Both the position numbers and the translations under genes were made by a program. Shown one piece after another: positions 1 through 42,220 of a stretch of 64,000 nucleotides of DNA. How positions within the stretch are numbered: the stretch's first letter is position 1; each line of letters starts with the position of its first letter. The stretch is from the NCBI GenBank assembly GCA_022568135.1, contig JADFFQ010000009.1:4741-68740 (forward strand). Direction: 5' to 3'. The notes under the pieces were generated by a model that saw only the letters and a list, made by a program, of their open reading frames with translations, did no database searches and was not told where the DNA came from. Source of the DNA: Planctomycetota bacterium. GTDB taxonomy: Bacteria > Planctomycetota > Phycisphaerae > Phycisphaerales > SM1A02.

Positions 1-113
1 CGCGGTGTTGGCGGCGCTACGCACACGCCCCCCAGTTGGCCAGCAGCGCGAGCAGGTCGAGGATGCCGACGGTGCCGTCGTAGTTGAAGTCAGGCGGGCA
101 GGGCGTCGCGCAC

Positions 114-1754
114 CTACCGGAAGCAGGTGCCGCACGGATTGCCGCCGAGGAACGAGCACCAGTTGGCCAGCAGCTTCGCCAGGTCGAACGCATCCACACA
201 CCCATCAGACACGCCGTCCACCGGTCCTGAGATGTCCGCCAGGGCGAAGTTCGGGGAGGTGCAGCCTTCGCAGGGCGGGTCTACGTCGCCGGGCGGGTCT
301 GGGTCGCTCGCAGCGGAGCACCACGCACCCAGCAGCGTCCCGAGGTCGAACGCATCAACGCATCCGTCGGGGAAGCCGGGGCCGAGCGGACCGGAGATGT
401 CGGCCGGGGGTTCACATTCATCCGGTACACCGTTGCCGTTTCGGTCCGTACTGGCGCCGACGACGATGTCGCAGTCATCAGGGATGCCATTCATGTTACA
501 GTCGGGTGTGACCGCGGCGGCGGGAACAATTTTGAAGACCTTGCCGCCGACTGTGCGGTCGCACAGATAAAGCTCACCGAAGGCGTCCTCGCCGAACGAG
601 GTCACCGAGTTGAGGGGAGGCCCGCCAACGGGCGCAAGCTCGTCTTGGATTTCTCGCAGTTCAATGATGGTCCCGTTGTCGTGCTCAAGCCGCCAGATGC
701 GGCCGAAGAGGTCGGCAAACAGGTAGGCGCCAACCAGATCGGGGATTGCGCAACCGCGATACACATAGCCGCCGATCACCACTGCCGGCGACGCATGCGC
801 GTACTCGAACATCGGGTCTACAAGGGTGGGGTCGGTGCAGTCACAGGTTTTTTCGGCGGTGCAACGGGTGCCCTCTTTACAATCCCAGCCGTAGTTCTCA
901 CCGCCGGCGCTGCTGCCCGGCCGGAAGTTGACTTCCTCCCAGGCATCCTGACCGACATCGCCAATGTACAGGTCGCCCGTCTCGCGATCGAGGCTGCACC
1001 GCCACGGGTTCCGCAGACCATAGGCCCAGATCTCGTCAGCGCCATCAATTCCGACAAAGGGGTTGTCCGGCGGGATGCCGTAGTTCCGGTTCGGGTCGGC
1101 CGGGAAATCGTCACAATCAACATCGATGCGCAGGATGCTGCCGAGCAGGTTGTCGAGGTTCTGTGCGTTGTCACCGGTGTCGTAAGGTTCGCCCCCGCCG
1201 TCGCCGAGGGCGATATAGAGGTAGCCGTCGTTGGGACCAAAGCCGATCCAGCCGGCGTTGTGGTGATTGGTGGGCTGTTCAACCAGCATGACCGGTTGCA
1301 CGCTGTCAGGATCCGCCACGTCAGGATCGGCGCTCACCGCATAGCGCGCAACAACGGTGTCCCCGTCCGGGGTGCGCGTGTAGTTGACGTAAAAGAATCC
1401 GTTCGTCTCGAAATCGGGGTGGAAAGCGAGGCCGAGAAGGCCCTGCTCATTCGGACCGCTCACCACGAGATCGGTCAGATCAAGAAACGGATCATCGAGG
1501 ACCGCCCCATCCTTGATAATGGAGATCCGGCCGAACTTCCCAACCACGAACAGGCGGTTGAAGTCACACGGCGCGTGGGTCAGGAATACGGGAAACCCAA
1601 TGTTCGCGACCAGGACCGTGGTCAGCTGCGAATCTCCGGCATTCAATGCGCCCGCAAGGGCAAGGCAAGGCCCCAGCAGGCCCAGTGGCAATAGACGTTT
1701 CCACTGGTCGGCCATCTTTTCGACCGTCCATTTCACCGATTTGTGCCTCGACAA
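114..1754 (-). CDS. Secreted PQQ-dependent glucose/sorbosone dehydrogenase-like beta-propeller protein with C-terminal dockerin-like repeats. The last dockerin repeat continues in another frame down to nt 17, so the tail appears frameshifted.
   Basis: The motif QGLLGLAFHPDFETNGFFYVNYT is typical of the soluble quinoprotein GSDH family. A Sec signal peptide (MADQWKRLLPLGLLGPCLALAGALNA) follows the upstream Mets; the start is taken at MLSRH or MADQW. The C-terminus reads ...DAFDLAKLLANW, and ORF 17..205 in another frame reads PCPPDFNYDGTVGILDLLALLANWGACA* (a dockerin repeat). Confidence 0.6.
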   Translation of the reverse strand: MSRHKSVKWTVEKMADQWKRLLPLGLLGPCLALAGALNAGDSQLTTVLVANIGFPVFLTHAPCDFNRLFVVGKFGRISIIKDGAVLDDPFLDLTDLVVSGPNEQGLLGLAFHPDFETNGFFYVNYTRTPDGDTVVARYAVSADPDVADPDSVQPVMLVEQPTNHHNAGWIGFGPNDGYLYIALGDGGGEPYDTGDNAQNLDNLLGSILRIDVDCDDFPADPNRNYGIPPDNPFVGIDGADEIWAYGLRNPWRCSLDRETGDLYIGDVGQDAWEEVNFRPGSSAGGENYGWDCKEGTRCTAEKTCDCTDPTLVDPMFEYAHASPAVVIGGYVYRGCAIPDLVGAYLFADLFGRIWRLEHDNGTIIELREIQDELAPVGGPPLNSVTSFGEDAFGELYLCDRTVGGKVFKIVPAAAVTPDCNMNGIPDDCDIVVGASTDRNGNGVPDECEPPADISGPLGPGFPDGCVDAFDLGTLLGAWCSAASDPDPPGDVDPPCEGCTSPNFALADISGPVDGVSDGCVDAFDLAKLLANWCSFLGGNPCGTCFR

Positions 1755-1998
1755 CATGGCTACACCTCCTGCGGGCAGAAAGGCCGCACCGTCGGGGGCA
1801 TCAAGGTGGTGGCCGAATCCATGGCAGCCGCGAGCCTCCTGCGACCTCATCTGAATCGATCGTTACCATCGTACCACGCTGATCGCTGCACCGCAAGAAA
1901 AGAATCGAGGCGAATCACCCGGATTGCGCCCGGACAACCGTATCGACGGGCTGATTGCTCGGAGAACGACGGTTTCGCACGCGGGCTATGATCCGTCG

Positions 1999-3978
1999 AT
2001 GACCTCTCATCTTGAATCCAGTCGCCGGCGCTATCAGCAGTACAAGCTCGACTTCAAGGAAAGCCGGGCAACGGGTGTTGCTGCAGCGGCGGCGCCGTCA
2101 TTGGATTCCATTGTCAAGCCGCCCGGAGCCAGGCAACGGTCGTTCGTAGAACTTCTGCGGCAGTTCTTCGCGCTGCTCAAAGGGCAGGGCTCACGGATCG
2201 CGCTGGCCTTGACGACATTGACGATCGCGACGGTGCTTGGCCTGGTCCCACCCGCTGCAACGAAAGTTGTGGTGGACTACGTATTGATTGACAACCCCCT
2301 GCCGGCAGTGCTCTCCGAACGGCTTCACCTGCCATCGGATCGCCGAGCGCTGCTGGGGACGGTGGCGTTGGGGATCGTTGTGATCTCGCTGGTATCGATC
2401 TCCGTCAGCATGTGGGGTCGCTGGCAGGCGACCAAGACAACGAAGCGGTTGCAGGTGGGCGTTCGCCGCAAGGTCTTCGAGCACGCGGTGCGATTGCCGC
2501 TGCATCGTGTCTATGCGTTGAAGTCGGGCGGCGTAGCAAGCATCTTGCGCGAAGATGCCGGGGGCGTCGCCGAGCTCATCTTCAGCATGCTCTACAACCC
2601 GTGGAGAGCAATTATTCAGCTTACGGGCACCCTGATCATCCTGGGGGTGGTCGATTGGCGGTTGCTGCTGGGGTCGTTGGTGTTGCTGCCAACGGTTTTT
2701 CTAACCCATCGCACCTGGATCGGCCGGGTCCGGCCGCTGTATCGAGATATCCGGGCCACCCGCCAGCACATCGACACCCACGCGACCGAGTCGTTCGGGG
2801 GAATGCGGGTGGTGCGCACCTTCGGCCGGCAACGCAGCGAAGCGGCTCGCTTCACCCGTAACAACCACCTCATGGCCAGGCAGGAGCTCGGCGCGTGGTG
2901 CTGGACGCGGAGCGTGGAGGTGGCCTGGGCAGTGCTGATTCCCGCCGCCGCGGCGCTGTTGTTGTTCTATGGCGGCTCTGAGGTGCTCAGCGGCACGATC
3001 TCCCCGGGCGACCTGGTGATGTTCCTTGCATACCTGGTGATGCTGCTTGCTCCGCTGGCGACGCTGGCCAGCAGCGCGACGCAGTTCCAAAACAGCTTGG
3101 CCGGGCTGGACCGCATCCTTGATCTGCTCGAAGAGCCGGTGGAGATGCCGCCCGCGCCCGGCGCGATCGTCGTCGATGCCCCCACCGTAGCCGGAGGGAT
3201 CACGCTCAAGGATGTCGGCTTCGTGTATCCCGGCTCGAGCATTCGTGTCCTCGACAATATCGATTTGACGGTGATGCCCGGTGAGACCGTCGCACTGGTC
3301 GGCCGAAGCGGCGCCGGCAAGACGACGCTCTGCAACTTGATTGCGCGTTTCTACGATCCGAGCGAAGGTGTCATTGAGCTCGACGGGAGGGATTTGCGCG
3401 AGATCGATGTCGAAAGCTATCGGCGACTGCTGGGAATTGTCGAGCAGGACATCTTCCTGTTCGACGGCACGGTGGCCCAGAACATCGGATATGCCCGCCG
3501 CGGGGTGACGATCGACGACATCACGCACGTGGCTGAACTCGCCCATGCCCATGAGTTCATCACCGAACTTGACCACGGCTACGACACGCTGATCGGTGAG
3601 CGCGGCGTGCGGCTCAGCGGCGGGCAGCGCCAACGACTGGCCATTGCCCGAGCGATGTTGGCCGATCCTCGCATCCTTATCCTGGACGAGGCAACGAGCA
3701 ACCTCGATACCCAAAGCGAGCAGTTCATCCAGGCGAGCCTCGCCGCGCTCATGGAAGGGCGCACCACCTTTGTGATCGCGCATCGCCTCAGCACGATCAT
3801 GCACGCCGATCGCATCGTCTTGTTGGAAGCCGGCCGGCTCCTCGACCACGGCACGCATGAACAGCTTCTGCAACGAAGCGAGACGTATCAACAAATGGTG
3901 TTCATGCAACTGCAAGGCGCGGCGGCCGCGACGCCGGCCGAGTCGTTTGTCGGGCCCGCTTTGCGGACCAGTTTGTAG
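1999..3978 (+). CDS. ABC transporter, fused permease/ATP-binding protein (MsbA-like type I exporter).
   Basis: Six TM segments at the N-terminus. Walker A is GRSGAGKTT, the signature is LSGGQRQRLAIARA, and Walker B is ILILDEAT. An alternative upstream start lies at 1924. Confidence 0.85.
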   Translation: MTSHLESSRRRYQQYKLDFKESRATGVAAAAAPSLDSIVKPPGARQRSFVELLRQFFALLKGQGSRIALALTTLTIATVLGLVPPAATKVVVDYVLIDNPLPAVLSERLHLPSDRRALLGTVALGIVVISLVSISVSMWGRWQATKTTKRLQVGVRRKVFEHAVRLPLHRVYALKSGGVASILREDAGGVAELIFSMLYNPWRAIIQLTGTLIILGVVDWRLLLGSLVLLPTVFLTHRTWIGRVRPLYRDIRATRQHIDTHATESFGGMRVVRTFGRQRSEAARFTRNNHLMARQELGAWCWTRSVEVAWAVLIPAAAALLLFYGGSEVLSGTISPGDLVMFLAYLVMLLAPLATLASSATQFQNSLAGLDRILDLLEEPVEMPPAPGAIVVDAPTVAGGITLKDVGFVYPGSSIRVLDNIDLTVMPGETVALVGRSGAGKTTLCNLIARFYDPSEGVIELDGRDLREIDVESYRRLLGIVEQDIFLFDGTVAQNIGYARRGVTIDDITHVAELAHAHEFITELDHGYDTLIGERGVRLSGGQRQRLAIARAMLADPRILILDEATSNLDTQSEQFIQASLAALMEGRTTFVIAHRLSTIMHADRIVLLEAGRLLDHGTHEQLLQRSETYQQMVFMQLQGAAAATPAESFVGPALRTSL

Positions 3979-4249
3979 GGTCGGCTGTACGGGCCAGTCG
4001 CGCATAGCACGTAAGACGAAAGGTCCGCGCACCAGCCCCTACGGCTGAGGGCCGCCAGTCGCCGGCATGTCCCCGACAGCCTCGTTCCCCGCTCTCGGAA
4101 GAAGTGCCAGGCCCACTCTCCGCATTATCGGTGTCTCAATGTTGGCTGTCTCGAGGAAAAGTCCTTCCCGACGGTTCCCGAATGGAGTACGATTACACGG
4201 CCTGGGAGGCGAATCCCTGAGCAATCCTTGCGGGAAAGGCGGTGGAGAC

Positions 4250-5677
4250 ATGAAGTACAGAATCTTTCTTGGGTTCGCTGCTCTGGCTGGCACGGCGATT
4301 CTTGTCGCCCAACTGAACGCCGGGGAAGGCGCCGGCAATTCGACCGGACCCAGCGGCGGTGGCGCTGTTGGGACGGCGGATAACGATGTCGGCGGCGGCA
4401 TCGCCGGAGGCGGGCCGGACGTGGTCTACACAAACGTGGGCAGCATTTCCAACTATGGAGCCATTGGTGGTATCCGCGGCTACACGCTGGGAAGCTTCAC
4501 CTGCAACATCGGTGATCAGGACCTGCTGTGGACCAGCAACGGCACGCCCGGTCTGGCGATGAACGCGTACCGGCTGCACGACGGCCGGCTGATGCAGATC
4601 GGCATGTCCTGGGTCAAGCACGCCTGCTGTGCCTTCGCCACCGGCGGTTGTGGCCTGGCCTGCAACGGGCATGGCGGCAATGTGCTCGGGGCGGGATGTC
4701 GCGACGTGTACAGCTCCGTGTGGAATGCCATCCAGAGCAGACTCGGGCCGCGCTCCGGGATTGATCCCTACTCCGGTGCGTTCTCACCTATTCCCGGTGG
4801 CGGGGGCGACGCCATCTTCAGGAGGCTGCAGATCGCAGAGTCCGACCTTGACGCCAACATCTATCCGGGGGCCCTGTACTTCGTCGAGGGTGTGTACGTC
4901 GGCACCGACGATGCGCAGTACGGCAACTGGCTCAACAACGCCTCCTACAAGCGGGTTACCGTGGGCGGTGATTTCTCCATGGTCGAAACGGGGCCGATTC
5001 AACTGACCATCCCCGCGATCTTCGCCTGGTATGATCACGGCAACGGCCCGAACAATCCCGACCCTTCGGTCGTGACTGTCAATGTCGATGTGCCCGGCGA
5101 GGGCCGGTTTGTCGTTAGCGCTAAGGCCAGCGACAGCGGTGACGGCACCTGGCGATACGATTACGCGGTCTTTAACCTCAACTCGCACCGTAGCGCCGGG
5201 GTATTCAGTGTGCCGATCCCCTCCGGGGCGATTGTCAGCGGTGTCGGTTTCCACGATGTGGACTATCACTCCGGCGAGGTCTACGACACCGCCGACTGGA
5301 TCATGAGCGTCACCGACACTGAAGTGACCTGGTCGAGCCCGGAGACATTTGCGGAGAACGCGAACACCAACGCGCTGCGCTGGGGGACGATGTACAACTT
5401 CTGGTTCGAGGCCGATGTTCAGCCGGTTGAGGGAGAGGTGACCCTCGGGCTGTTCCGCCCGGGGGCGCCGGGGGTTGTGTCAGCCACGGTGTCGGTGCCA
5501 GGGAGCCTCTGCTCGGCCGACCTCGACGGCGACGGCTCCGTGGGGATCCTCGACTTGCTGGCGCTCTTGGCGGCCTGGGGCGCGAACCCCGGGCACCCAG
5601 CCGACTTTGATGGCGATGGCACCGTCGGCATCCTGGACCTGTTGACCCTGCTGGCCGACTGGGGGCCGTGCCCCTGA
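4250..5677 (+). CDS. Secreted hypothetical protein with a C-terminal tandem dockerin-like tail.
   Basis: Signal peptide MKYRIFLGFAALAGTAILVAQLNA with GGAGA upstream of the ATG at 4250. The C-terminus is DLDGDGSVGILDLLALLAAWGANPGHPADFDGDGTVGILDLLTLLADWGPCP. Confidence 0.6.
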   Translation: MKYRIFLGFAALAGTAILVAQLNAGEGAGNSTGPSGGGAVGTADNDVGGGIAGGGPDVVYTNVGSISNYGAIGGIRGYTLGSFTCNIGDQDLLWTSNGTPGLAMNAYRLHDGRLMQIGMSWVKHACCAFATGGCGLACNGHGGNVLGAGCRDVYSSVWNAIQSRLGPRSGIDPYSGAFSPIPGGGGDAIFRRLQIAESDLDANIYPGALYFVEGVYVGTDDAQYGNWLNNASYKRVTVGGDFSMVETGPIQLTIPAIFAWYDHGNGPNNPDPSVVTVNVDVPGEGRFVVSAKASDSGDGTWRYDYAVFNLNSHRSAGVFSVPIPSGAIVSGVGFHDVDYHSGEVYDTADWIMSVTDTEVTWSSPETFAENANTNALRWGTMYNFWFEADVQPVEGEVTLGLFRPGAPGVVSATVSVPGSLCSADLDGDGSVGILDLLALLAAWGANPGHPADFDGDGTVGILDLLTLLADWGPCP

Positions 5678-5998
5678 GACGCGACACCGGCCGAGGCGCT
5701 GCTGGGTGGTGAGGGAGGGTTAATCTGGGCCGAGGCCGCCCGAAACCGGCTTTTTGAGATTTATGCGCTTGGATCGCTCGGAGATCGTGTATATTCATCC
5801 TTGGTGACGTCTCTACGGGTCCTGTCGAGGTGTGCCTGCATGGCTGGGCAAGAGGGGAGATAACGGTTCTCCGCCCGGCGAAGGGGCCCAGGCAAAAGCC
5901 CCCGGGGGGGCAGGCCGGCATCTCGGAAGATGAGCACCTTCGGCCGTGGTGTGAGCCGCGGCATGAGACCGCTTGGGATATGTAAGAGGAGATTAAAA
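5540..5998 (+). repeat. Copy 1 of a duplicated unit (dockerin tail plus about 320 bp of intergenic leader); copy 2 is at 6720..7177.
   Basis: Near-identical sequence runs from the dockerin coding region through the stop codon to the start of the next gene (compare 5641-5998 with 6821-7177 by eye). Confidence 0.8.
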
Positions 5999-6859
5999 AT
6001 GAGAAGTTCAGCATTGAGAACCACCCTTGGCCTTGCCGGCGGTCTTGTGATTGCTGTGGCAGCCAACGATGCTGTGGCCGGGCCAACCGGCGCGTGCTGC
6101 ATCGGCAAGATCTGCGTCATCGTTACCGAGGACGCCTGTGCTGTCCTGGGCGGAACCTACCAGGGTGACTTGACGAACTGCGAGGGCGGAGGAGCACCGG
6201 TCACCTATGAGTCGTTCCCGAATGCGCCGCTGCCGGACAACAATCCCGCGGGTGTCAGCGACACCATCACGGTGCCGGACTCGGTGGTCATCACCGATGT
6301 CGATGTCGCTCTGCAAGTGACGCACACCTGGGTCGGCGATCTGTGCGTGACCCTTGTGCATCAGCCCACGGGCACAACGGTGGACCTGATCCAGCGCATG
6401 GGCGAGGCAGGCGGATGCCATTCCGGCTTTCCCTTTGGCTGCGCTGCGGACAATTTCAACATCGTCCTTGACGACGCGGGGGCCGGCGGTCCCATCGAGA
6501 GTCAATGTGTGTTCAATCTCTCCTCACCGCCGGGCTACGCTCCCAACAACCCGCTCGCGGCGTTCAATACGCTCGACTCGGCCGGGGACTGGACCTTGAC
6601 CGTGAGCGACAATGCGGGCGCCGATTTCGGGACGTTTGACAGTTGGGCGCTCATTATCACAAGTAGTGGGCCCGGCGCGTGCGAATCATTATGCGCTTGG
6701 GATCTGGATGGGAGCGACGATGTCGGCATCCTCGACCTGCTGGCGCTCTTGGCGGCCTGGGGCCCGAACCCGGGGCACCCAGCCGACTTTGACGGTGATG
6801 ACAACGTCGGCATCCTGGACCTACTCACCCTGCTGGCCAACTGGGGGCCGTGCCCCTGA
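5999..6859 (+). CDS. Secreted protein made of a proprotein-convertase P-domain and a dockerin-like tail.
   Basis: Strong SD (AAGAGGAG) before the ATG at 5999. Signal peptide MRSSALRTTLGLAGGLVIAVAANDAVAG. P-domain motifs are HTWVGDLCVTLVHQPTGTTVDLIQRMG and GDWTLTVSDNAGADFGTFDSWALII. The C-terminus is DLDGSDDVGILDLLALLAAWGPNPGHPADFDGDDNVGILDLLTLLANWGPCP. Confidence 0.7.
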   Translation: MRSSALRTTLGLAGGLVIAVAANDAVAGPTGACCIGKICVIVTEDACAVLGGTYQGDLTNCEGGGAPVTYESFPNAPLPDNNPAGVSDTITVPDSVVITDVDVALQVTHTWVGDLCVTLVHQPTGTTVDLIQRMGEAGGCHSGFPFGCAADNFNIVLDDAGAGGPIESQCVFNLSSPPGYAPNNPLAAFNTLDSAGDWTLTVSDNAGADFGTFDSWALIITSSGPGACESLCAWDLDGSDDVGILDLLALLAAWGPNPGHPADFDGDDNVGILDLLTLLANWGPCP

Positions 6860-7177
6860 GACGCGACACCGGCCGAGGCGCTGTTGGGTGGTGAGGGAGG
6901 GTTGATCTGGGGCGATGCCGCCCGAAGTCGGCTTTTTGAGATTTATGCGCTTGGATCGCTGGGAGATCGCGTATATTCATCTTTGGTAACGTCTCTCGGG
7001 TCCCGCCGAGGCATGCGTGCATGGCGAGGCAAGAGGGGAGATAACGGTTCTTTGCCCGGCAAGAAAGTCCGAGGCAAGAGCCCCCGGGGGGCAGGCCGGC
7101 ATCTCGGAAGATGAGCACCTTCGGCCGTGGTGTGAGCCGCGGCATGAGACCGCTTGTGATTATTGAGGAGATTGGAG
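6720..7177 (+). repeat. Copy 2 of the duplicated dockerin-tail plus leader unit.
   Basis: See copy 1. A conserved block with a TATATT-like box and a TTTTTGAG run is present in both copies. Confidence 0.8.
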
Positions 7178-8218
7178 ATGAGAAGTTCAGCATTGAGAAC
7201 CACCCTTGGCCTTGCCTGCGGTCTCGTGATTGCCGTGGCAGCCAACGACGCTGTGGCCGGGGAGTGCCCGGGCGCCGGCGACTGCTGCGTCCCCAACGGA
7301 ACGCCCGGATGCGATGATGAGGTGTGCTGCAGCGCGATCTGCGCCAATGATTCGTTCTGCTGTGACGTGTCATGGGACTCGATCTGCGCAGACGCGGCGA
7401 ACGCCGATGCTGTCAATTGCCCGCAGTGCCAGCCGGTTCCGTCCGGCGCCTGCTGTATCGGCACGGATTGCGTCGTCGTCACCGCAGACGCCTGTTCTGC
7501 CAAGGGCGGAAGCTACCAGGGTGACTTGTCGAAGTGCTTCAGTGGAGGAACACCGCTCACCTATGAGTCATTCCCCCATGCGCCGCTGCCGGATGACAAT
7601 GCCGCGGGTGTCAGCGACACGATCACCGTGCCGGACTCGGTGACGATCACCGACGTCGATGTCGGTCTGCAAGTGATCCACACCTGGGTCGGCGATCTGT
7701 GCGTGACCCTTGTGCATCAGCCCACAGGCACAACGGTGGACCTGATCCAGCGCATGGGCACCCCCGGCGTATGCCATTCCGGCGGTCCCTTCGGCTGCGC
7801 TGCGGACAATTTCAACATTGTCCTTGACGACGCGGGGGCAGGCGGTCCCATCGAGAGTCAATGTGTGTTCAATCTCTCGTCACCGCCGGGCTACCACCCG
7901 AACAACCCGCTCGCGGCGTTCAATGCGCTCGACTCGGCCGGGGACTGGACCTTGACCGTCAGCGACAATGCGGCTGCCCTTCTCGGGACGTTTGAAAGTT
8001 GGTCGCTCATCATCACGAGTGGCGGAACGAGCGCGTGCGATGCATCATGCGCCTGGGATCTGGATGGGAGCGGCGATGTCGGCATCCTCGACCTGCTCGC
8101 GCTGCTGGCCGCGTGGGGTCCGTGCGAGGCACCCTGCCCGCCGGACTTCGATGGCGGCGGAACAGTCGATATCTTCGACCTGCTCACCCTCATATCCAAC
8201 TGGGGATTCTGCCCGTGA
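7178..8218 (+). CDS. Paralogue of 5999..6859: a P-domain plus dockerin secreted protein with an extra Cys-rich N-terminal insert.
   Basis: Same signal peptide and leader as 5999..6859. The insert reads CPGAGDCCVPNGTPGCDDEVCCSAICANDSFCCDVSWDSICADAANADAVNCPQCQP. The same P-domain motifs follow. The dockerin tail is diverged and ends FDLLTLISNWGFCP. Confidence 0.7.
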   Translation: MRSSALRTTLGLACGLVIAVAANDAVAGECPGAGDCCVPNGTPGCDDEVCCSAICANDSFCCDVSWDSICADAANADAVNCPQCQPVPSGACCIGTDCVVVTADACSAKGGSYQGDLSKCFSGGTPLTYESFPHAPLPDDNAAGVSDTITVPDSVTITDVDVGLQVIHTWVGDLCVTLVHQPTGTTVDLIQRMGTPGVCHSGGPFGCAADNFNIVLDDAGAGGPIESQCVFNLSSPPGYHPNNPLAAFNALDSAGDWTLTVSDNAAALLGTFESWSLIITSGGTSACDASCAWDLDGSGDVGILDLLALLAAWGPCEAPCPPDFDGGGTVDIFDLLTLISNWGFCP

Positions 8219-8257
8219 GCGATCGGTCAAGCGCTATCGACGACTATCGATGACCCA

Positions 8258-8288
8258 AAGCCCAGGGAAAGCTTACCCTGGGCTTTTC
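8258..8288 (+). terminator. Rho-independent terminator hairpin.
   Basis: The sequence aagcccaggg-aaagctta-ccctgggctt forms a 10 bp perfect stem, followed by ttcaa, immediately after the stop of 7178..8218. Confidence 0.5.
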
Positions 8289-9306
8289 AATCTGCTCCGA
8301 CAGCGCCGCGCCACATTCCACCCCGCGCAAGCTCTGCTTCGGCTGCGAGGTGCCCAAAGGCCGGCCAAGCGGAGCCGGACGCGATTTCTTTGAAGATTCC
8401 CAACGCCTCCTTTGTCCGGCCGTGGATCAGATGCCACGCCCCGAGGCCGTAGGCGATCGTGGCATCGTTGATCGCATCCGAGGTCGGAGCCGACGTGTCC
8501 CCACGCCGCTGGGGGCTGAGGGCAGCGAGGCTGTGAAGCACCTGCTGCGGCGTCAGCTCCCCCTTGTACAGCAGCAGCAGCTTGTGGTACGCAAAGTTCT
8601 CGATGATCTCCATATCGGCGGTGATGTGTTCGAGCACTGCCCCCGCTTCATCGTCGCGACCCAGCCTGCCAAGCGTGAGATAGAGCCAGTAGCTTGTCGC
8701 GCAGCGCATGTCGTTGTTCGTCGCGAAGTCCATACACCGGCGATAGGCCCCAAGAGCATTCTCAAACTCACCTTTGAGGTAGTGCGCGAGTCCGAGGTGG
8801 TAATAGATATTGCTGTGACTGGTGCTGGTGGGGATATTCCGGCGGTTGGGCAGACCATCCGGCTCGATCTCATCGGGCCGGCCCTGGATCAGCTCGGCGG
8901 CGCGACTGAGGTCGCCGATCGCGTCATCGAATCGGCGCAGGGTGATGAATCGATGCCCGCGGTGTCGTCGCAGTTTGTAGCTGTTGGGATACTCCGCCAG
9001 GCCGTCGCGATAGACGGCGATCGCATCGTTATACCGACCCAGGTATGCCAGCCGGCGGCCCAGCCAGGTGATGTTGGCCTCGTCGCGCGGGTTCTGCTGG
9101 TATTGCGCCCTGGCCTGGGAAAGCTCATCTACGCGCCTGGCGCGCGTTTCGGAAGAAAGTTTCGGCTCGTATAAAAGTTTACCGAGCAGCGACGTCGCCT
9201 CCGGCGTACTGCAACCCACGATAGCGGCCATCAACACAGGCAGGATGAGCCGTATCCTCGGTGAGGCCGCTGGGGTACGCATCTTCATCAATCCGTGGGC
9301 CTTCAT
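8287..9306 (-). CDS. TPR-repeat lipoprotein.
   Basis: Lipobox PVLMAAIVGC. Multiple TPR-like units (LGRRLAYLGRYNDAIAVYRDGLAEYPNSYKLRRHRGHRFITLRRFDDAIGDL). The 3' end may be shorter than the ORF, since the ORF runs into the terminator hairpin. Confidence 0.55.
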   Translation of the reverse strand: MKAHGLMKMRTPAASPRIRLILPVLMAAIVGCSTPEATSLLGKLLYEPKLSSETRARRVDELSQARAQYQQNPRDEANITWLGRRLAYLGRYNDAIAVYRDGLAEYPNSYKLRRHRGHRFITLRRFDDAIGDLSRAAELIQGRPDEIEPDGLPNRRNIPTSTSHSNIYYHLGLAHYLKGEFENALGAYRRCMDFATNNDMRCATSYWLYLTLGRLGRDDEAGAVLEHITADMEIIENFAYHKLLLLYKGELTPQQVLHSLAALSPQRRGDTSAPTSDAINDATIAYGLGAWHLIHGRTKEALGIFKEIASGSAWPAFGHLAAEAELARGGMWRGAVGAD

Positions 9307-32798: not shown

Positions 32799-33075
32799 GA
32801 CATTATCCTTTCTCTAAAATGGTCAAGCAGTGTACCCTAACTCCCCCCGGCCGTTCAGGCCCGCCGGTCAAGTCGCTCGGACACGTCCCGACCGCCGCCC
32901 GACTGGCCATGATTCCCCATAGCCGAGGCGGGTTCAGACCTGGCCCCGCTGCAATTAGGCCAACAGGGCCCATGGTCATGCCCCGAGCCGGTGGCGGCCC
33001 ATATCATACGCCAAGCGTGTTGTGCCATCGCTGCAGATGGCGGGCGACCGCCCCAGATCCAGGAGATCGACTCCC

Positions 33076-34272
33076 ATGACCACCGCCAGCACACCGTCGT
33101 CAAGGCCCAAGACCGGCCCAGAGACCGATCCGCTGCGATTGATCGACGTGGATCACGTGCGGTTCTACGTCGGCAACGCCAAGCAAGCGGCGTATTTCTA
33201 CGCGCACTGTTTCGGCTTCCAGGTCGCGCAGCTTGCGGACCTCACCACCGGTTGCCGCGAGGAAGCGAGCTACCTGCTCACCCAGGGCAACATTCGTTTG
33301 GTGCTGAGCACCGGGTTGCACAAAGACCACGCCGCCCAGCGCGAGGTGATGCGCCACGGTGACGGGATCAAGGACATCGCCTTCACCGTCCGCGACGCGG
33401 CCGCCGCCTACGAACAAGCCATCAAGAACGGCGGGGAATCTGCCTATGAACCCGTCGAGATGACTGACGATTCCGGGGACGGCACGGTGGTCGTGGCCGG
33501 AATCAAGACCTTCGGCCGATGTGTCCACAGTTTCGTCTCCCGCAACGGCCGGTACAAACTGGAGAACATTCAGGGCGGCGGCCCGTTCATGCCCAGGTTC
33601 GAGCCGGTGGAGTCATTTGCGCTCAACGAGTACAACCAGGCCCATCCCTGTGGGCTGATGTACGTCGATCACTGCGTGGGCAACGTCGAGCTGGGGAAGA
33701 TGAACCACTGGGTGAAGTGGTATGAAGAGGTGCTCGGCTTCAAGCAGTTCAAGCACTTCGACGACAAGGACATCTCGACGGAGTACTCGGCCCTGATGTC
33801 CAAGGTGATGGACTCAGGTTTCGGCACTATCAAGGTGCCCATCAACGAGCCGGCCCACGGCAAACGCAAGAGCCAGATTCAGGAGTACCTCGACTGGCAC
33901 GATGATGAGCCGGGCGTGCAGCACCTGGCCTTCCGCACCGATGATGAGCTGGCCAGCGTGGCGGAGCTGCACCGCCGCGGCGTGGATTTTCTACGCATCC
34001 CCGATGAGTACTACCAAACCGTCTGGGACCGCGTGTCCAAGATGGGCTGGGAGATCAAGGAGGATCACCAGCGCATCCGGGACCTTGGCATCCTCGTTGA
34101 CGCTGATGACGAGGGGTATCTGCTGCAACTGTTCACCAAGCCGCTTCAGGACCGCCCGACGCTGTTCTTCGAGATCATCTGCCGCCGCGGGTCACAGAGC
34201 TTCGGCAAAGGCAACTTCAAGGCCCTCTTTGAGTCGCTGGAGTTGGAGCAGGCCCGCCGAGGGAATCTATGA
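33076..34272 (+). CDS. hppD: 4-hydroxyphenylpyruvate dioxygenase.
   Basis: Two VOC modules. The C-terminus is [35 protein letters not shown], an HPPD signature. AGGAG lies upstream of the ATG at 33076. Confidence 0.9.
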   Translation: MTTASTPSSRPKTGPETDPLRLIDVDHVRFYVGNAKQAAYFYAHCFGFQVAQLADLTTGCREEASYLLTQGNIRLVLSTGLHKDHAAQREVMRHGDGIKDIAFTVRDAAAAYEQAIKNGGESAYEPVEMTDDSGDGTVVVAGIKTFGRCVHSFVSRNGRYKLENIQGGGPFMPRFEPVESFALNEYNQAHPCGLMYVDHCVGNVELGKMNHWVKWYEEVLGFKQFKHFDDKDISTEYSALMSKVMDSGFGTIKVPINEPAHGKRKSQIQEYLDWHDDEPGVQHLAFRTDDELASVAELHRRGVDFLRIPDEYYQTVWDRVSKMGWEIKEDHQRIRDLGILVDADDEGYLLQLFTKPLQDRPTLFFEIICRRGSQSFGKGNFKALFESLELEQARRGNL

Positions 34273-34754
34273 CCTCTACTCGTCCGATCCGCGCTTACGC
34301 CGATACGTCCGTTTTCGGCGGATGCTTCGAGGAACGATTTCAGGATGCAAGCAAGCGATTCTTCGAGGGAGTCAACGCCGGACGGTTGATCGTCCTGCTG
34401 GGTGCGACGACCGAAGCGGAGTTAGCACTCGCGCCGGGTCGCGTTCAGGAGATCGTTGCCAGCCTATCCGACGATCGAATCATCCGTTGCCCCATAACGC
34501 CCGATGTTGCCGAACTGCGCCAAGCCTATCTCGATGCCGGAGTCCTGGGGACGGGATCGTTTGATGATGCGACTCATGTGGCCATCGCGACAGCCCATAA
34601 CGCCGATCTGTTGGTGAGTTGGATTTTCCGGCATATTGTCAACTACGATAAGATACGTGGATTCAATGCCGTCAACCTGCGGCTGAACTACCGATCGCTG
34701 AGCATCCACTCCCCCCCAGAGATTGTGTATGGCAAAGACGAAGAACGACTTTGA
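34269..34754 (+). CDS. PIN-domain protein (VapC-like); its start overlaps the hppD stop (ATGA).
   Basis: IRAYADTSVFGG (first acidic residue), TTEAEL and DDATHVAIATAHNADLLVS motifs. Confidence 0.55.
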   Translation: MTSTRPIRAYADTSVFGGCFEERFQDASKRFFEGVNAGRLIVLLGATTEAELALAPGRVQEIVASLSDDRIIRCPITPDVAELRQAYLDAGVLGTGSFDDATHVAIATAHNADLLVSWIFRHIVNYDKIRGFNAVNLRLNYRSLSIHSPPEIVYGKDEERL

Positions 34755-34955
34755 CTGTGTTCAAATGAAGCGGGAAATTCAGGCCCGGGTCGCGGCGGAG
34801 ACCAAGGGCATGACCGCCGAACAGCGGGACGCTTACATTCGCGAGCGAGCCGACGCTTTTGCCCAGAAGATGGGCTGGATCTACGAATCGGTCCCCGATG
34901 AACACGGGCACTATCACGTCAGGCGAATCGACGACAAGGGTGGCAAGCCCGGATG

Positions 34956-34956
<1 letters not shown>
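34729..34956 (+). CDS. Small hypothetical protein (76 aa) that overlaps the 3' end of the PIN gene.
   Basis: Protein-like composition (MAKTKNDFDCVQMKREIQARVAAETKGMTAEQRDAYIRERADAFAQKMGW...). No homology was recognised. Confidence 0.3.
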
Positions 34957-35052
<96 letters not shown>

Positions 35053-35077
35053 AGCTCCCCCAGAGTGAAGGCTGTTG

Positions 35078-35451
<374 letters not shown>

Positions 35452-35600
35452 TCTGAGCGGCTTGTGCGCCTGGGGGATATGATGCCGACAGGCGAGATCC
35501 CAGGACCCATGTATGCACGAGCGGGTCGCTTCACACACCCAGCCTTGCTCTCTGGCGGATCGCCGCCACGACGATCATCCAGAGCGATCGGGCGCGAACG

Positions 35601-36410
35601 ATGCGCCTGAATGACATTCGGGACTGGTGGAAGCTTCGCCGGTTCGCAGCGAATCCGTGGCAGATCGTCTGGTTTCGCAAGAGACAACGCGCGGGCAAGA
35701 CGCTGACCGTCCGGATGCGCACCGGCCACCGGCTCCATCTGCGGGGCGGGTCTCATGATCACCTGGTCTTCCGCGAAATCTATCTGAAGGATCAATACCG
35801 GGTCAGCCGCCACGAGGCGGAGACGTGGCAGTGCGTTGTTGACCTCGGGGCGAACGTGGGCTTGTTTACATCCCGCGTTGCCGAGCAGGCGGAACGAGTG
35901 ATCTGCTATGAACCCATTCCTGAGAACTTCGCGCAGCTGCGGCGGAACATCGAAGGCTTGTCCAACGTGGCGCCGGTGCAGGAAGCGGTCGATGGCAAGA
36001 CCGGCATGATGCGGCTGCACTTCCCGCAGGCGAATGAAGCGACAGGCCAGTTCGCCAAGTATCCGCAGCCGGAGATTCATCTGCCTGAATCGTTCATCGA
36101 AGTGCCGTGCATCACTCTTGATGAGCTGTTCGACCGACATCGAATCGAGTCTTGTGATCTCTTGAAGATCGACGTGGAGGGTGCCGAGTACGATATCCTG
36201 TATGCAGCCAGCGACCGTACGTACGCGAGAATCCTTCGAATCTACGGTGAGTACCACATTGCCAGGCCGAATGCGGAACGGTCGTCGATCGCGGCGCTCG
36301 CCGCCTTCCTGCGCTCGAAGCGCTTTGATGTGGAGATCGTGCCGCAGCGAAACTTGGCCGACTACGGTCTGTTCTTTGCAACACAGCCCAAGCGTCAGGC
36401 CAAGCCCTGA
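35601..36410 (+). CDS. FkbM-family SAM-dependent methyltransferase (second copy in the window).
   Basis: VVDLGANVGLFTS...LKIDVEGAEYDIL. Confidence 0.75.
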   Translation: MRLNDIRDWWKLRRFAANPWQIVWFRKRQRAGKTLTVRMRTGHRLHLRGGSHDHLVFREIYLKDQYRVSRHEAETWQCVVDLGANVGLFTSRVAEQAERVICYEPIPENFAQLRRNIEGLSNVAPVQEAVDGKTGMMRLHFPQANEATGQFAKYPQPEIHLPESFIEVPCITLDELFDRHRIESCDLLKIDVEGAEYDILYAASDRTYARILRIYGEYHIARPNAERSSIAALAAFLRSKRFDVEIVPQRNLADYGLFFATQPKRQAKP

Positions 36411-36418
36411 CCTGAGTC

Positions 36419-37033
36419 GTGCGACGAGCTCACATGGTCAATGAAAACGTGTACAGATGGGTGTTGTTGGCGATCATCGTCAGCTGCTTCGGCATAAGCA
36501 TCTACTTTCGCCGCGGAGCGGCCAGGTCCGGCGGACCCATCTCTTCACGCGACAGTGGGCTCGCAATTGACACCTCGTTGTCGCTGTTTGGCCTTGGAGC
36601 AATGGCGGGCCTTGTGGCCTATCTCATCAATCCCAAGTGGATGGCATGGTCGCAGCTTGAACTTGTGCCGCAGCTGCGACTGCTCGGCGGACTACTTGGT
36701 CTGATCGTGCTGGCTCTGGTGTTTTGGGCGCTGCGACACCTTGGAGCCAACCTCACTCGTACTGCGCGGACGAGATCGCATCACACCCTGGTGACAGGTG
36801 GCCCTTACCGCTGGGTTCGGCATCCGCTGTATTCGTCCGGTGTGGTGCTGTGCACCGGCCATGTTCTGCTCACCGCCAACTGGTTCATATTGCTCATGTG
36901 CGGGCTGGCCTTCGCTGTGTTGCTGGTGCGGACCTCGCGGGAAGAGGCAAATCTGATCAAGAAGTTCGGCGACGAGTACCGGGCGTACATGAGCCGCACC
37001 GGGCGCTTCCTTCCCCGCCTCCGTGCCTCATAG
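36419..37033 (+). CDS. Isoprenylcysteine carboxyl methyltransferase (ICMT/PEMT) family membrane methyltransferase.
   Basis: TM helices, then HTLVTGGPYRWVRHPLYSSGVV...REEANLIKKFGDEYRAYMSRTGRFLP. Confidence 0.7.
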   Translation: MRRAHMVNENVYRWVLLAIIVSCFGISIYFRRGAARSGGPISSRDSGLAIDTSLSLFGLGAMAGLVAYLINPKWMAWSQLELVPQLRLLGGLLGLIVLALVFWALRHLGANLTRTARTRSHHTLVTGGPYRWVRHPLYSSGVVLCTGHVLLTANWFILLMCGLAFAVLLVRTSREEANLIKKFGDEYRAYMSRTGRFLPRLRAS

Positions 37034-37164
37034 GCAGGCCGAGGCCGAGGACGGCGCGCCTCGCCTCAGACACGGCGCGGCTCGCTCAACACAACCCCGT
37101 CGTCAGCAGACGATCCCGCTACAATGTGGGTGGAATACGAGCAGTTAACCGAGGAGCACGCCCC

Positions 37165-38436
37165 ATGCCCTACTACTTCAAGCTCGGTCAATTGCCGCCC
37201 AAGCGGCACATTCAGTTTCGTCGCCCCGACGGGGCGCTGTATTCCGAGGAGGTCTTCGGCACGGAGGGATTCGTCGGCCCGACCACCACGCTGTACCACA
37301 TCCATCCGCCGACGCAGGTCACCGGCTGGAAGATGCTCTACTCGACGAAACCCGAATACGTCGAGACCGACACGATGCGGATGCGGCATCTCAAGACGAT
37401 GCCGATGAAGCCGAAAGGCGATCCGATCACTGGGCGAGTGGTGCTGTTCGGCAACGCAGATTGCGAGATGAGCCTCTGCGCACCCGCCGAGGCGATGAAC
37501 TACCACTACAAGAACGGTATGGGCGACGAGTGCGTCTTCATCCATTACGGCTCGGGCACTGTGTACAGCTCCTTCGGCACGCTGCACTTTCGCCCCAAGG
37601 ATTACATCATTATCCCGAAAGGCGCCACGTACAAGATGGTGTTCGACAAGCCCGCCGAGGGTGAGCCGAAGCCAAAGTTCCTGGTGATCGAGACTGCCAA
37701 CGGCTCGCATATCTTGCCCCCGCCGCGATACCTGTCGAAGAAGACCGCCCAGTTCCTGGAGCATGCCCCGTACTGCGAGCGCGACCTGCGCCCGCCTGAG
37801 CTTCCGTTGACGTACGACGAAGCTGGCCAATTCGAGGTGAGGATCAAGGCCCGCGACCGCGTACACAGCTACATCTACGACTATCACCCGCTGGACGTGG
37901 TCGGCTGGGACGGTTGCTACTACCCGTACCGGTTCAACATCGACGACTTCAGCCCGATCACGGGCAAGCACCACATGCCGCCGCCAACGCACCAGACGTT
38001 CGAGGCACACAACTTCGTGATCTGCTCATTCTGCCCGCGGGCGCTCGACTGGCACCCCCAAGCGATTCCCATCCCCTACAACCACTCCAACATCGACTCC
38101 GACGAAGTCCTGTACTACGTTGACGGGAACTACAAGGCCCGTAAGGGGATCGAAATCGGCTCGATCACCCTGCACCCGCAAGGCATCCCCCACGGCCCAC
38201 ATCCCGGTACCGTTGAGCTGTCGCTCGGCAAGCAGTGGACCAGTGAGCTGGCGGTGATGTGCGATACCTTCCGCCCGCTGTATCCGACCAAGGCGGCGTT
38301 GGAGCTGGACGACCAGGAGTATCCGGAAAGCTGGAAGGGAGACCATTTCCCCAAGACCGCCGGGACGCACCTGCCCAACGGTGAGGCGAAACCCGAAGCC
38401 CAGCCAATGGCTGAAGCCGTCGATACCAGCGGCTGA
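37165..38436 (+). CDS. hmgA: Homogentisate 1,2-dioxygenase.
   Basis: MPYYFKLGQLPPKRHIQF...GFVGPTTTLYHIHPPT... GAGGAG lies 8 nt upstream of the ATG at 37165. Confidence 0.9.
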   Translation: MPYYFKLGQLPPKRHIQFRRPDGALYSEEVFGTEGFVGPTTTLYHIHPPTQVTGWKMLYSTKPEYVETDTMRMRHLKTMPMKPKGDPITGRVVLFGNADCEMSLCAPAEAMNYHYKNGMGDECVFIHYGSGTVYSSFGTLHFRPKDYIIIPKGATYKMVFDKPAEGEPKPKFLVIETANGSHILPPPRYLSKKTAQFLEHAPYCERDLRPPELPLTYDEAGQFEVRIKARDRVHSYIYDYHPLDVVGWDGCYYPYRFNIDDFSPITGKHHMPPPTHQTFEAHNFVICSFCPRALDWHPQAIPIPYNHSNIDSDEVLYYVDGNYKARKGIEIGSITLHPQGIPHGPHPGTVELSLGKQWTSELAVMCDTFRPLYPTKAALELDDQEYPESWKGDHFPKTAGTHLPNGEAKPEAQPMAEAVDTSG

Positions 38437-38495
38437 TCGGAGTACGTCCGATGCATGGGCGAACCAAATCTGTTGAGGCGCGATTGCAGCGACTG

Positions 38496-39644
38496 ATGAC
38501 CGGCCGGCGGATCGCGATCACTGTGCAGGCTTCGATAATGACGTTGTTGATGTTGGTCGGCATCGCCGGCTGTGGAGCGGAGCCGAACCCTGTCACAAGC
38601 TCGGACCCTGACCCATCGGAGGTGAAGCCGCCTGGCAATCCCAGCCTTGGCGCGATTCCCGTGCGGTCATCGGTCGAGGACAACCCCCCCGGCTGGCCGC
38701 CGGTCGAATTCGAACCCCCCCTGCTCGACTTCGGCAACCTCCCCCCGGGCGGAACCGGCACAGGGTGGGTCAAGATATGGAATGTTGGCCAAGAACCGCT
38801 CAAGATCATCAGGTCGATAACGAGTTGTGGCTGCACGGTCGCCGAGAACCTCGCCGGCCGGGAGATCCCGCCGGGCGGATTCACCGAGTTCAGCACCACA
38901 ATGAATATGAAATCTGGACTTGGTGAGAAGAAGGAGAAGATCAGCATCGTGTTTGAGGGGTATTCCGAGACCTTCGCGGTGTATTACTTCATGGCTGAGG
39001 TCAGCTTGCCTATTCGCGTCACCCCGCCGTACATTCGGGCAGCCGATCGGGTTGCCAACGAATGGGTGCACACGACCTCAGGCGAACTGCGCGTGGAATC
39101 TACGGACGGCAAGCCGTTTCGCATTCTGGGATCACACGGCGAGCCGCCCCAGTTCATCGGCTTTGATCCCGCCACCAACCCGCCGGCCAGTGCGTACACA
39201 ATCCGATGGGATTTGGACCGATTCACTGAGGCCACTCTCCCATGGTTCTGGGTCATCGAGACGGACCGGGCGGACTGCCCGGTCGTGGATGTTCGACTTC
39301 GCCACGAGTCCACGAAGCCGATTCGACCGCGCGGCCGGCCGTGGGTGCCGATAGATCAGAGAATCCTCGTGGGCGAGGTGCGCGTTGGCGAACCGTTCGA
39401 GGTGGCCACCAAGATCGAGTTCGTTGAGCGATATACGCCCGATCCGATGACGGCCGGTGTAACCAGCGATTCACCGTTCCTTGAGGCCCAGCTGCTGGAG
39501 GCACAGCAAGACGACCAGTTCCTCCAATTCCGAATTCGCATCACGCCGGTGGAGGCCAAGCCCGGTCTGCTGTACGGGATACTCACATTGGACGCCTCCG
39601 GCTATACCACGCAACTGCGCATCATCGGCCGGGTGGTGGAATAG
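38496..39644 (+). CDS. DUF1573 domain lipoprotein.
   Basis: Lipobox LLMLVGIAGC. LDFGNLPPGGTGTGWVKIWNVGQEPLKIIRSITSCGCT matches DUF1573. Confidence 0.6.
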   Translation: MTGRRIAITVQASIMTLLMLVGIAGCGAEPNPVTSSDPDPSEVKPPGNPSLGAIPVRSSVEDNPPGWPPVEFEPPLLDFGNLPPGGTGTGWVKIWNVGQEPLKIIRSITSCGCTVAENLAGREIPPGGFTEFSTTMNMKSGLGEKKEKISIVFEGYSETFAVYYFMAEVSLPIRVTPPYIRAADRVANEWVHTTSGELRVESTDGKPFRILGSHGEPPQFIGFDPATNPPASAYTIRWDLDRFTEATLPWFWVIETDRADCPVVDVRLRHESTKPIRPRGRPWVPIDQRILVGEVRVGEPFEVATKIEFVERYTPDPMTAGVTSDSPFLEAQLLEAQQDDQFLQFRIRITPVEAKPGLLYGILTLDASGYTTQLRIIGRVVE

Positions 39645-39739
39645 TCCGACTGCGCTCGTAGGTCCGTCGGCCCCGAGTTGCGGACACGCCAGCTCGAGCC
39701 GAGCGCGCTAGGCTGGGTCGTTCGGCGGAGGCTCATCCA

Positions 39740-41215: not shown

Positions 41216-41341
41216 TGATCCTCGGGGCGGTCGTGAATACGCGGAGAGGATCACAGCGCGGGAGCTACCGTTGCGGGCGGGGCCTTCGGGAGGACCATGC
41301 TTCGCCTGTTGAGCGGTGATCGGGAGCGGCCTTGGCGCAAG

Positions 41342-41437: not shown

Positions 41438-42220
41438 TTATGGGCAGGCGCCCCAGTTTGCGAGCAAGGTCAGCAGGTCGAGGATTCCGACGTCGCCGTC
41501 GCCGTTGAAGTCCGGCGGACCGCCGGGGTCGGTGCCCCAAGCAGCCAGCAAAGCCAGTAGGTCAAGGATGCCGACATCACCGTTGCCGTCGAGATCCCAC
41601 GGGCACGGCTCACCGGCCTCACCCACAAGCTGGAACCCGTTGACCGAGCCGAACCCAGAGTTGGTTTCGATGCTGACGGCGATCGTTCCGTCAACAACAT
41701 CGACAGTGTGCAACGCGTAGGTTGTACCCTGAGAATGGCCGCCCGGCCAGCCACCGCCGATGAACTGCGAAGGATCCGGGGACCCGGCCACCGACACCTC
41801 CGAAACGTACCCAGCACTGTCAGGTGCCCAGGCATAGGTATACACGGTGTAGGACCCGTTGGCGAGACCCGAAAACGTCCAGGTGGCAAGCATGCCCGCG
41901 CCACCGACGTCCTGGAGGTCGTCCATGAGGGCCTCGTCGTCGCCGGTGGTGCCCCCGTTGTTGTCGTCGAAGTCGCCACCGCCGCCGGAATTGCTCAGTG
42001 TGACCCCTGTCGCGCCGCCTGCTAGATCAGAGAGCGGGACATTGAACGCGCCCGCGTTCACAGCGTTCCAGGTACCACTCTGGCCGGCACCGGCAGCGTA
42101 GACGTCTGCCGGAACCCCATAGGGGCTGTTCGGGTCCCCGACATCGACGTTGAACGACTGCCCGAAGCCCGGCGTTGCGACGCCGAGTACAACTGCCAAG
42201 AAAAAGATTTTCGCCTTCAT
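41438..42220 (-). CDS. Secreted hypothetical protein with a dockerin-like tail (fifth member in the window).
   Basis: Signal peptide MKAKIFFLAVVLGVATPGFG. The C-terminus is PCPWDLDGNGDVGILDLLALLAAWGTDPGGPPDFNGDGDVGILDLLTLLANWGACP. Confidence 0.65.
   Translation of the reverse strand: MKAKIFFLAVVLGVATPGFGQSFNVDVGDPNSPYGVPADVYAAGAGQSGTWNAVNAGAFNVPLSDLAGGATGVTLSNSGGGGDFDDNNGGTTGDDEALMDDLQDVGGAGMLATWTFSGLANGSYTVYTYAWAPDSAGYVSEVSVAGSPDPSQFIGGGWPGGHSQGTTYALHTVDVVDGTIAVSIETNSGFGSVNGFQLVGEAGEPCPWDLDGNGDVGILDLLALLAAWGTDPGGPPDFNGDGDVGILDLLTLLANWGACP

Follow-up and report, generated by a model that had tools for sequence, protein, structure and literature searches.

Three adjacent genes on the plus strand of a 64-kb stretch of metagenomic DNA (contig JADFFQ010000009.1 of assembly GCA_022568135.1, positions 4,741 to 68,740; hereafter the window) encode secreted-type proteins that end in the same dockerin-like tail. 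Two of them, genes B and C, are recent tandem copies built around a proprotein-convertase P-domain, and each is preceded by a conserved non-coding leader of about 320 nucleotides (nt). We interpret genes A, B and C as a tandem paralogue array on the chromosome of an uncultured Phycisphaerae-like planctomycete, with dockerin-like tails, growth driven by crossover and a leader that serves as a selected control region; we give this reading as a whole a probability of roughly 0.6. At the level of gene content it is an ordinary paralogue family, that is, a recombination-driven array in which secreted P-domain proteins bear dockerin-like Ca-loop tails; its members are new representatives of known domain families equipped with a lineage-restricted, putative promoter and 5' untranslated region (5'UTR).

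P-domain proteins and the dockerin-like tail

Each protein is predicted to carry a Sec-type signal peptide and a dockerin-like C-terminal tail, between which B and C would hold disulfide-rich modules and a stand-alone P-domain, and A a core of several beta sandwiches. The P-domains, which an earlier note on this DNA had recognised from the sequence alone, are borne out by Pfam, where P_proprotein, with a cut-off of 21 bits, scores 43.2 on B and 37.6 on C. An AlphaFold2 (AF2) model of C has a predicted local distance difference test (pLDDT) score of 71 overall and 80–92 within the P-domain; compared with the PDB by Foldseek, it matched Aeromonas ASP (3.8e-7), Kex2 (3e-6) and furin (~5e-5) with a probability of 1.00 each, and its P-domain matches span E values from 4e-7 to 1e-4. 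Like the P-domain of the convertases themselves (kexin, furin and Aeromonas sobria ASP), those of B and C score above the threshold of the hidden Markov model (HMM), and the predicted beta sandwich of C superposes on it. Kexin and furin differ in possessing an S8 catalytic domain, whereas the P-domain of B and C stands alone: neither a subtilisin S8 domain upstream of it nor any other peptidase domain was found at Pfam E<=1 in these proteins of just 286 and 346 amino acids (aa), as the earlier note had also proposed. This stand-alone architecture is common among the homologues retrieved, several of which are named 'subtilisin-like proprotein convertase family protein' or 'proprotein convertase P-domain-containing protein'. 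The product of C is identical to the hypothetical protein IH983_04305 of a 'Planctomycetes bacterium' metagenome-assembled genome (MAG) at NCBI.

Ahead of the P-domain, every homologue down to 50% identity carries a 4-Cys module ('GACCxGxxCxxxTxxxCxxxGGxYQGDxxxC'; 6089-6190 in B and 7445-7546 in C) that matches no database model. The segment before this 'GACC' module exists in three states, namely nothing (B and homologue P0010), a 60-aa module with 12 cysteines (C and most homologues), or a module of ~150 aa behind the same signal peptide (P0006, L006:1398-2702; P0012; and the upstream gene of contig L004, L004:2-985; L numbers are our labels for relatives' contigs). These differing N-terminal modules indicate module swapping within the P-domain family. 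The 12-Cys module of C (7262-7441; CPGxGDCCxxNGxPGCDDExCCxxICxxDxFCCDxxWDxxC...NCPQC) has no Pfam match. It is the Cys-rich segment that had been described as a 55-aa insert; it is real and B does not have it, but it is probably not a gain in C: the segment is the common state in the family and B most likely lost it, judging from the homologues compared.

For gene A, Pfam and NCBIfam matches are confined to the tail. The core (4247-5509) belongs to a very large, well-conserved Phycisphaerae family for which neither collection holds a model, with more than 1600 homologues at 55–70% identity, mostly hypothetical proteins of Phycisphaerae and Planctomycetota, those of the isolate RAS2 among them. 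An AF2 model of A (pLDDT 79) is all-beta, with immunoglobulin-like (Ig-like) beta sandwiches, and in Foldseek it returned only weak, non-specific beta-sandwich matches (TM <0.2; adhesins, integrins).

The tail shared by these proteins is 55–59 aa long and alternates loop and helix twice: its two EF-hand-like Ca-loops have 12 residues, the last of them Asp, and each leads into a helix (residues 303–311 and 332–340 in the model of C). Its consensus reads C-P-W-D-L-D-G-x-G-x-V-G-I-L-D-L-L-A-L-L-A-A-W-G-P-N-P-G-H-P-A-D-F-D-G-D-G-x-V-G-I-L-D-L-L-T-L-L-A-N-W-G-P-C-P, the D-x-D...D pattern is invariant, twice over, in the tail alignment, and two conserved cysteines flank the module. A six-frame motif search found the complete double repeat in four window proteins, A, B, C and the product of a minus-strand gene at 41438-42220; of the five that had been counted earlier, the fifth is a single out-of-frame half-repeat at the window edge. 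This lone repeat, CPPDFNYDGTVGILDLLALLANWGACA, lies ~40 nt past the stop codon of a GSDH/pyrroloquinoline quinone (PQQ)-type dehydrogenase gene in another frame, and may be a third repeat shifted out of frame, a decayed remnant or an error of the assembly. The dehydrogenase itself ends in a different double repeat, a sister tail that passes the NCBIfam model NF041540 (dockerin_GC) at 32.1 bits against a cut-off of 29. Beyond the window the tail module is widespread, with 9332 cluster representatives at E<=1e-10, and is joined to many unrelated secreted domains (FG-GAP, PQQ dehydrogenase, reprolysin-like, beta-helix).

We consider the domain calls sound and, for the tail, the name 'dockerin' a reasonable analogy with borderline formal membership. 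Of the type I dockerin proposed in the earlier note, the loop-helix arrangement, present twice, is a real resemblance, and it is the formal HMM membership that is marginal. With type I dockerins (PF00404) and NF041540 the tail shares a C-terminal position, a length of ~60 aa, tandem DxDGxGxVxxxD-LLxLLxxWG repeats and many unrelated partner domains; it differs in scores near or below the cut-offs, the bracketing cysteines, the G-P-C-P end and the lack of a cohesin nearby. Ile-Leu in the tail also occupies the place of Ser-Thr, the recognition pair of clostridial dockerins.

Two results count against the dockerin component of our interpretation. Against Dockerin_1 (cut-off 22.9) A scores 21.5 and the minus-strand gene 16.5, with no match to B or C at E<=1, and no cohesin is encoded among the 33 window open reading frames (ORFs) scanned with Pfam, which agrees with the earlier note in that it saw no cohesin-like partner. 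Under NF041540 the tail of A alone reaches 30.1 bits and full-length A 25.5, with no match to the tails of B and C. A strong competitor, to which we assign only somewhat less than even odds, is that the tail is an EF-hand-type calcium module and not a cohesin-binding dockerin, and that it stabilises the protein or anchors or sorts it through an S-layer, glycan or outer-membrane partner. Besides the dockerin scores at or under threshold and the missing cohesin, this is favoured by a profile search of the PDB in which the best matches of the tail were calmodulin EF-hand pairs, with no dockerins among the 60 matches listed, and by the family tails at E<0.01, as many of which match EF-hand_6 (14/23) as Dockerin_1 (13/23). 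The conserved Cys pair points the same way, as do the internal and multiple occurrences of the module, with up to 18 matched stretches in one 2148-aa protein (P0241), which mean that it is not strictly a C-terminal tag. The layout of the tail argues for a dockerin, with loop then helix, twice, no E-helix before the loop and Asp instead of Glu at loop position 12. So does its placement, ~59 aa at the C-terminus of many unrelated catalytic or binding domains, which is the dockerin pattern. In addition, NCBI curates the sister tail as a 'GC-type dockerin' (a literature search for this term found no paper), and cohesin/dockerin pairs with P-domain proteins have already been proposed in Phycisphaerae (PMC6461901). 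On our dockerin-like reading, the tail would bind Ca2+ and tether the protein to the cell surface or sort it there.

Andrei et al. (2019, ISME J; PMC6461901) suggested that planctomycetes of the Phycisphaerae lineage may join cohesin and dockerin modules and P-domain proteins in a surface complex, the 'planctosome', unrelated to cellulose degradation; the model is itself a hypothesis and includes an anchoring protein of 2210 aa that combines a cohesin with several P-domains. The proteins described here are in contrast small, with a single P-domain and a dockerin-like tail each, and no cohesin was seen among the 33 window ORFs scanned. The locus offers a concrete and well-delimited example for the hypothesis that dockerin-tailed proteins decorate the surface of Phycisphaerae. 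Its domains have been catalogued before, as have stand-alone P-domains and dockerin-like tails outside cellulosomes, and current understanding of them stands.

Probable exchange within the tail-coding repeat

The duplicated unit is visible as a direct repeat (5519-6082 versus 6701-7261) with 85–93% identity by block, 92% identity across 600 aligned columns and a 54-nt core that is identical in both copies, where chance would produce 0 such matches. The earlier note had the leader unit repeated nearly identically; the repeat is real, and 'nearly identical' amounts to about 91%. The similarity between B and C extends beyond the direct repeat and through the gene bodies. It is not uniform, and sliding identity places a recombination junction inside the tail of B. 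Upstream of it, in the distal P-domain and the first tail repeat, B resembles C at 97%, whereas downstream of ~6740 it resembles A (90–97%) and not C (73–77%). Half-tails that precede a leader are also more like one another than like other tails.

From this sequence evidence, we regard the mosaic in the tail of B as the probable trace of an exchange inside the tail-coding repeat, by unequal crossover or by gene conversion, and the B/C pair would have arisen by such an event between two tail-coding repeats. The propagating unit would comprise the second tail repeat, the 320-nt leader, the signal peptide and the gene. Crossover within the tail repeat would account for two features of the family: the extent of the conserved unit, which begins with the second tail repeat and reaches across the leader into the signal peptide, and the differences in arrays between relatives. 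The order is A-B-C in the window and A-P0006-next in L006; both L004 and L007 have B-C, and L005 has A-C with no leader. The locus in this respect would show how arrays of dockerin-tailed proteins grow, by crossover inside the repeat that encodes the tail.

The leader and its conservation

Searching through B homologues, their contigs and a scan of species-representative genomes, we recovered nine full and three partial leader copies, located in the window and on eight other contigs from other assemblies (L004, L006 with two in tandem, L007, L066, L067, L068 and the MAG contigs L010 and L011). Eleven of the 12 entered the alignment, the exception being a 5' fragment at L068:1011-1093. All copies share one orientation, and those with both flanks present lie between the stop codon of a tail and a signal peptide of the MRSSALRTTLGLACGLVIAVAANDAVAG type. 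The gene upstream of the leader varies and can be A-like, P-domain or FG-GAP; the FG-GAP gene in MAG B3D1T2 (L010:2400-3418) contains an in-frame stop (..YIYH*DGSKW..) and is either a pseudogene or affected by a sequencing error. Profile searches with nhmmer found the leader nowhere else in the window or in the loci analysed from relatives besides the copies upstream of close P-domain homologues; it was detected neither before the fourth tail-bearing gene nor before more distant P-domain homologues (<=56% identity, L013 onward).

One indication that the leader is constrained is that it evolves more slowly than synonymous positions of the genes it precedes. Pairwise identity averages 0.911 in the leader and 0.791 at the four-fold sites of the genes downstream, corresponding to Jukes-Cantor distances of 0.095 and 0.245 and a relative rate of ~0.4x, and the two classes differ in 19 of 21 pairs (Fisher p<0.05). 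The half-tail adjoining the leader has a four-fold identity of 0.80, as in the gene bodies, which represents the neutral level of the unit. Because the leader is more conserved than four-fold sites while the adjoining half-tail sits at that neutral level, it is constrained and not merely young, and we conclude from these comparisons that it is in all probability kept by purifying selection. The earlier note would have been refuted had the identity of the leader come purely from a very recent duplication; its reading is supported, as the leader is conserved in copies from other assemblies, above synonymous sites.

We posit that the leader is most likely the P-domain gene's own control region, with a promoter, a start site and a partly structured 5'UTR whose regulatory role is suggested by its composition. 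Its best-conserved blocks are the T-run together with TTGGATC...TATATTC, both leader ends and the region upstream of the Shine-Dalgarno (SD) sequence; the positions at which the earlier note had placed the TATATT, the T-run and the SD are correct. From the 5' end the leader would hold a weak stop signal for the upstream gene, then a sigma-70-like promoter around TTGGAT-N15-TATATT and, downstream of it, a 5'UTR of ~200 nt containing a strong SD as well as at least two hairpins that are conserved. Like the conserved promoter/5'UTR leaders of other paralogous families, the leader is a non-coding unit that moves together with its gene, changes less than synonymous sites do and includes short hairpins conserved between copies. 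It would represent a clade-restricted small non-coding element under selection and a candidate promoter/5'UTR regulator. Small ORFs were also considered and rejected: a 14-codon frame at an ATGCGC site and an upstream ORF (MSTFGRG) lose their starts or have frames broken by indels in some copies, and the frame of long minus-strand ORFs across the leader changes between copies.

Two short hairpins downstream of TATATT, H1 and a GUGA-loop hairpin, have comparative support: 99.3% of their cells in the alignment are paired, three pairs show compensatory changes and the G-U intermediates fit the plus strand. In 500 shuffles none reached the observed pairing or covariation score, and 12/500 reached the count of compensatory pairs. 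The conserved pairing is a hint of plus-strand structure, short of proof. A specific regulatory RNA is supported neither by Rfam, where the region 3500-9000 has no match among 4227 families (E<=10) apart from two chance-level matches (E 0.84 and 2) far under gathering scores, nor by fold z-scores of about -1.4. It is doubtful, though conceivable, that the leader is a hitherto undescribed, lineage-specific structured cis-regulatory RNA in a recombination cassette bounded by dockerin-tail repeats, by which regulated P-domain genes could be copied behind any tail-bearing gene. Such an RNA could be a translational or stability switch in which a CAUCUC segment pairs in turn within a local hairpin and with the SD.

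Several observations weigh against our main reading of the leader as a selected control region with a promoter and 5'UTR. All copies are at least 88% identical, which gives the comparisons low power, and the leader could look more conserved than it is owing to mosaic recombination within the family. H1 and the GUGA-loop hairpin were chosen by eye, and for two of the three compensatory pairs it is one and the same group of copies that shows the changes, which may represent one or two events. Fold z-scores of the whole leader and of the 5'UTR (-1.3 to -1.8) are not significant and the minus strand folds equally well, while RNAalifold consensus structures, which we rejected, changed between 6- and 8-sequence alignments and contained no compensatory pairs. 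The putative promoter is imperfect, matching 3/6 positions of the -35 hexamer with a 15-nt spacer, and a promoter scan of the leader reported none on the plus strand. Nor did a terminator scan call an intrinsic terminator on the plus strand at 5700-5760 or 6880-6940. The earlier note had described a hairpin followed by a T-run directly after the upstream stop; the T5 run is present, but the hairpin is weak and differs between copies, with fold z-scores of +1.3, -1.4, +1.2 and +0.7 that make it no stabler than shuffled sequence in three of four copies. Finally, L003, L005 and L012 have in place of the leader a 47-nt spacer that matches only its last ~45 nt, and lack the remaining 277-nt block.

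These leaderless alleles bear on an improbable alternative in which the leader is part of a polycistronic mRNA produced by read-through, where it would serve, for example, in intercistronic processing or stability with a long-range stem closing the element, or in which it encodes a separate small RNA. They are clearly operon-like with their 47-nt spacer, the terminator after the upstream gene is weak, and the arms of the long-range stem are the best-conserved parts of the leader with changes mostly of the G-U type that fit the plus strand. The stem, however, has no compensatory change and was dropped by RNAalifold once more sequences were added, the overall fold stability of the leader is not exceptional, Rfam offers no match, and the strongly conserved T-run/TTGGATC/TATATT block is better explained by signals at the DNA level.

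The absence of the 277-nt block from the same three alleles also raises the idea, which we find still less probable, that the block is an insertion resembling a miniature inverted-repeat transposable element (MITE), or another mobile or recombinogenic element, that came to lie after the tail stop and ahead of a short ancestral spacer. The block has a 9-nt direct repeat, mismatched at one position, on either side (TGAGACGCG at 5675-5683 and TGAGCCGCG at 5952-5960), and its ends, which are among the most conserved leader segments, form an imperfect, bulged 18-bp inverted repeat that is 97.9% paired across copies with one-sided changes only. This terminal inverted repeat was not reported by a gapless repeat finder, and deletion between the 9-nt direct repeats would explain presence and absence equally well. 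The leaderless genes, moreover, nest among leader-bearing genes in a poorly resolved neighbour-joining tree, all 12 leader copies occur in the one context and orientation described above, and exact leader patterns have 0 matches in public collections of genome contigs and of metagenome contigs. The leader shares with MITE-like intergenic repeats a presence/absence polymorphism flanked by direct repeats, but it is not a typical MITE because no dispersed copies were found. Gene bodies of the leaderless alleles group with leader-bearing genes that differ from one allele to another, a pattern suggestive of recombination that separated 5' region and gene body. These alleles also have a distinct signal-peptide variant (MRISVL...), and those in L003 and L012 carry extra C-terminal dockerin-like repeats.

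That the leader is neutral sequence which looks conserved through the recent B/C duplication alone is very unlikely: B and C are 85–97% identical over most of the unit and for this pair by itself the leader (0.89–0.91) is little above the four-fold sites of the bodies (0.85), but another seven full copies, on other contigs and in MAGs, share 88–93% identity with both window copies while the adjoining four-fold sites average 0.79, the window copies resemble those from other genomes at least as closely as they resemble each other, and B-leader-C arrays also occur in L004 and L007, so that the duplication predates those lineages.

Coordinates and genomic setting

Positions of the array, its leader copies and other tail-bearing genes (window numbering unless a contig is given)
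Feature	Position	Strand	Remarks
Gene A	4247..5677	+	476 aa, secreted-type; all-beta core; dockerin-like tail 5510-5677
Leader copy 1	5678..5998	+	321 nt
Leader copy 1, elements	T5 run 5751-5755; TTGGATC 5769; TATATT 5790-5795; SD GAGGAG 5986-5991	+	
Leader copy 1, hairpins	H1 5869-5886; GUGA-loop 5943-5962	+	
Gene B	5999..6859	+	286 aa; PF01483
Gene B, layout	signal peptide 5999-6082; 4-Cys 'GACC' module from 6089; P-domain ~6194-6674; tail 6692-6859	+	from alignment
Recombination junction	~6735..6745	+	sliding identity; inside tail of B
Leader copy 2	6860..7177	+	318 nt
Leader copy 2, elements	T5 run 6933-6937; TTGGATC 6951; TATATT 6972-6977; SD GAGGAG 7165-7170	+	
Leader copy 2, hairpins	H1 7050-7067; GUGA-loop 7124-7143	+	
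Gene C	7178..8218	+	346 aa; PF01483
Gene C, layout	signal peptide 7178-7261; 12-Cys module 7262-7441; 'GACC' from 7445; P-domain ~7550-8030; divergent tail 8048-8218	+	
Fourth tail-bearing gene	41438..42220	-	260 aa; unrelated N-terminal part
GSDH/PQQ-type dehydrogenase gene	114-1850	-	ends in 'DISGP..PDGCVDAFDL..LL..WC' x2
Lone second-half 'GILDLL' repeat	29-70	-	87-codon ORF, out of frame with the GSDH gene
Spacers of leaderless alleles	L003:699-747; L005:1896-1944; L012 ~1552-1600		

The window has a G+C content of 63% and is identical to part of the 239.5-kb metagenomic scaffold ENA ERZ23498856 scaffold_35; its nearest relatives are MAGs of Planctomycetota/Phycisphaerae. Housekeeping genes surround the array, including those for ABC transporters, IMPDH, T2SSE ATPases, GlnRS/GluRS, EPSP synthase and tyrosine catabolism. 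The tyrosine-catabolism set (33022-44114) comprises genes for an HPPD-like dioxygenase (33022-34272), an HgmA-like protein (36724-38436) and an FAA hydrolase (42786-44114), and encloses the fourth tail-bearing gene and a DUF1573/Ig-like gene (38451-39644). Further paralogues stand side by side elsewhere in the window, namely two class-I Glx-tRNA synthetase genes (45204-46934 and 46966-48663) and a gene pair with weak DUF7129 matches (57380-58279 and 58357-59289).

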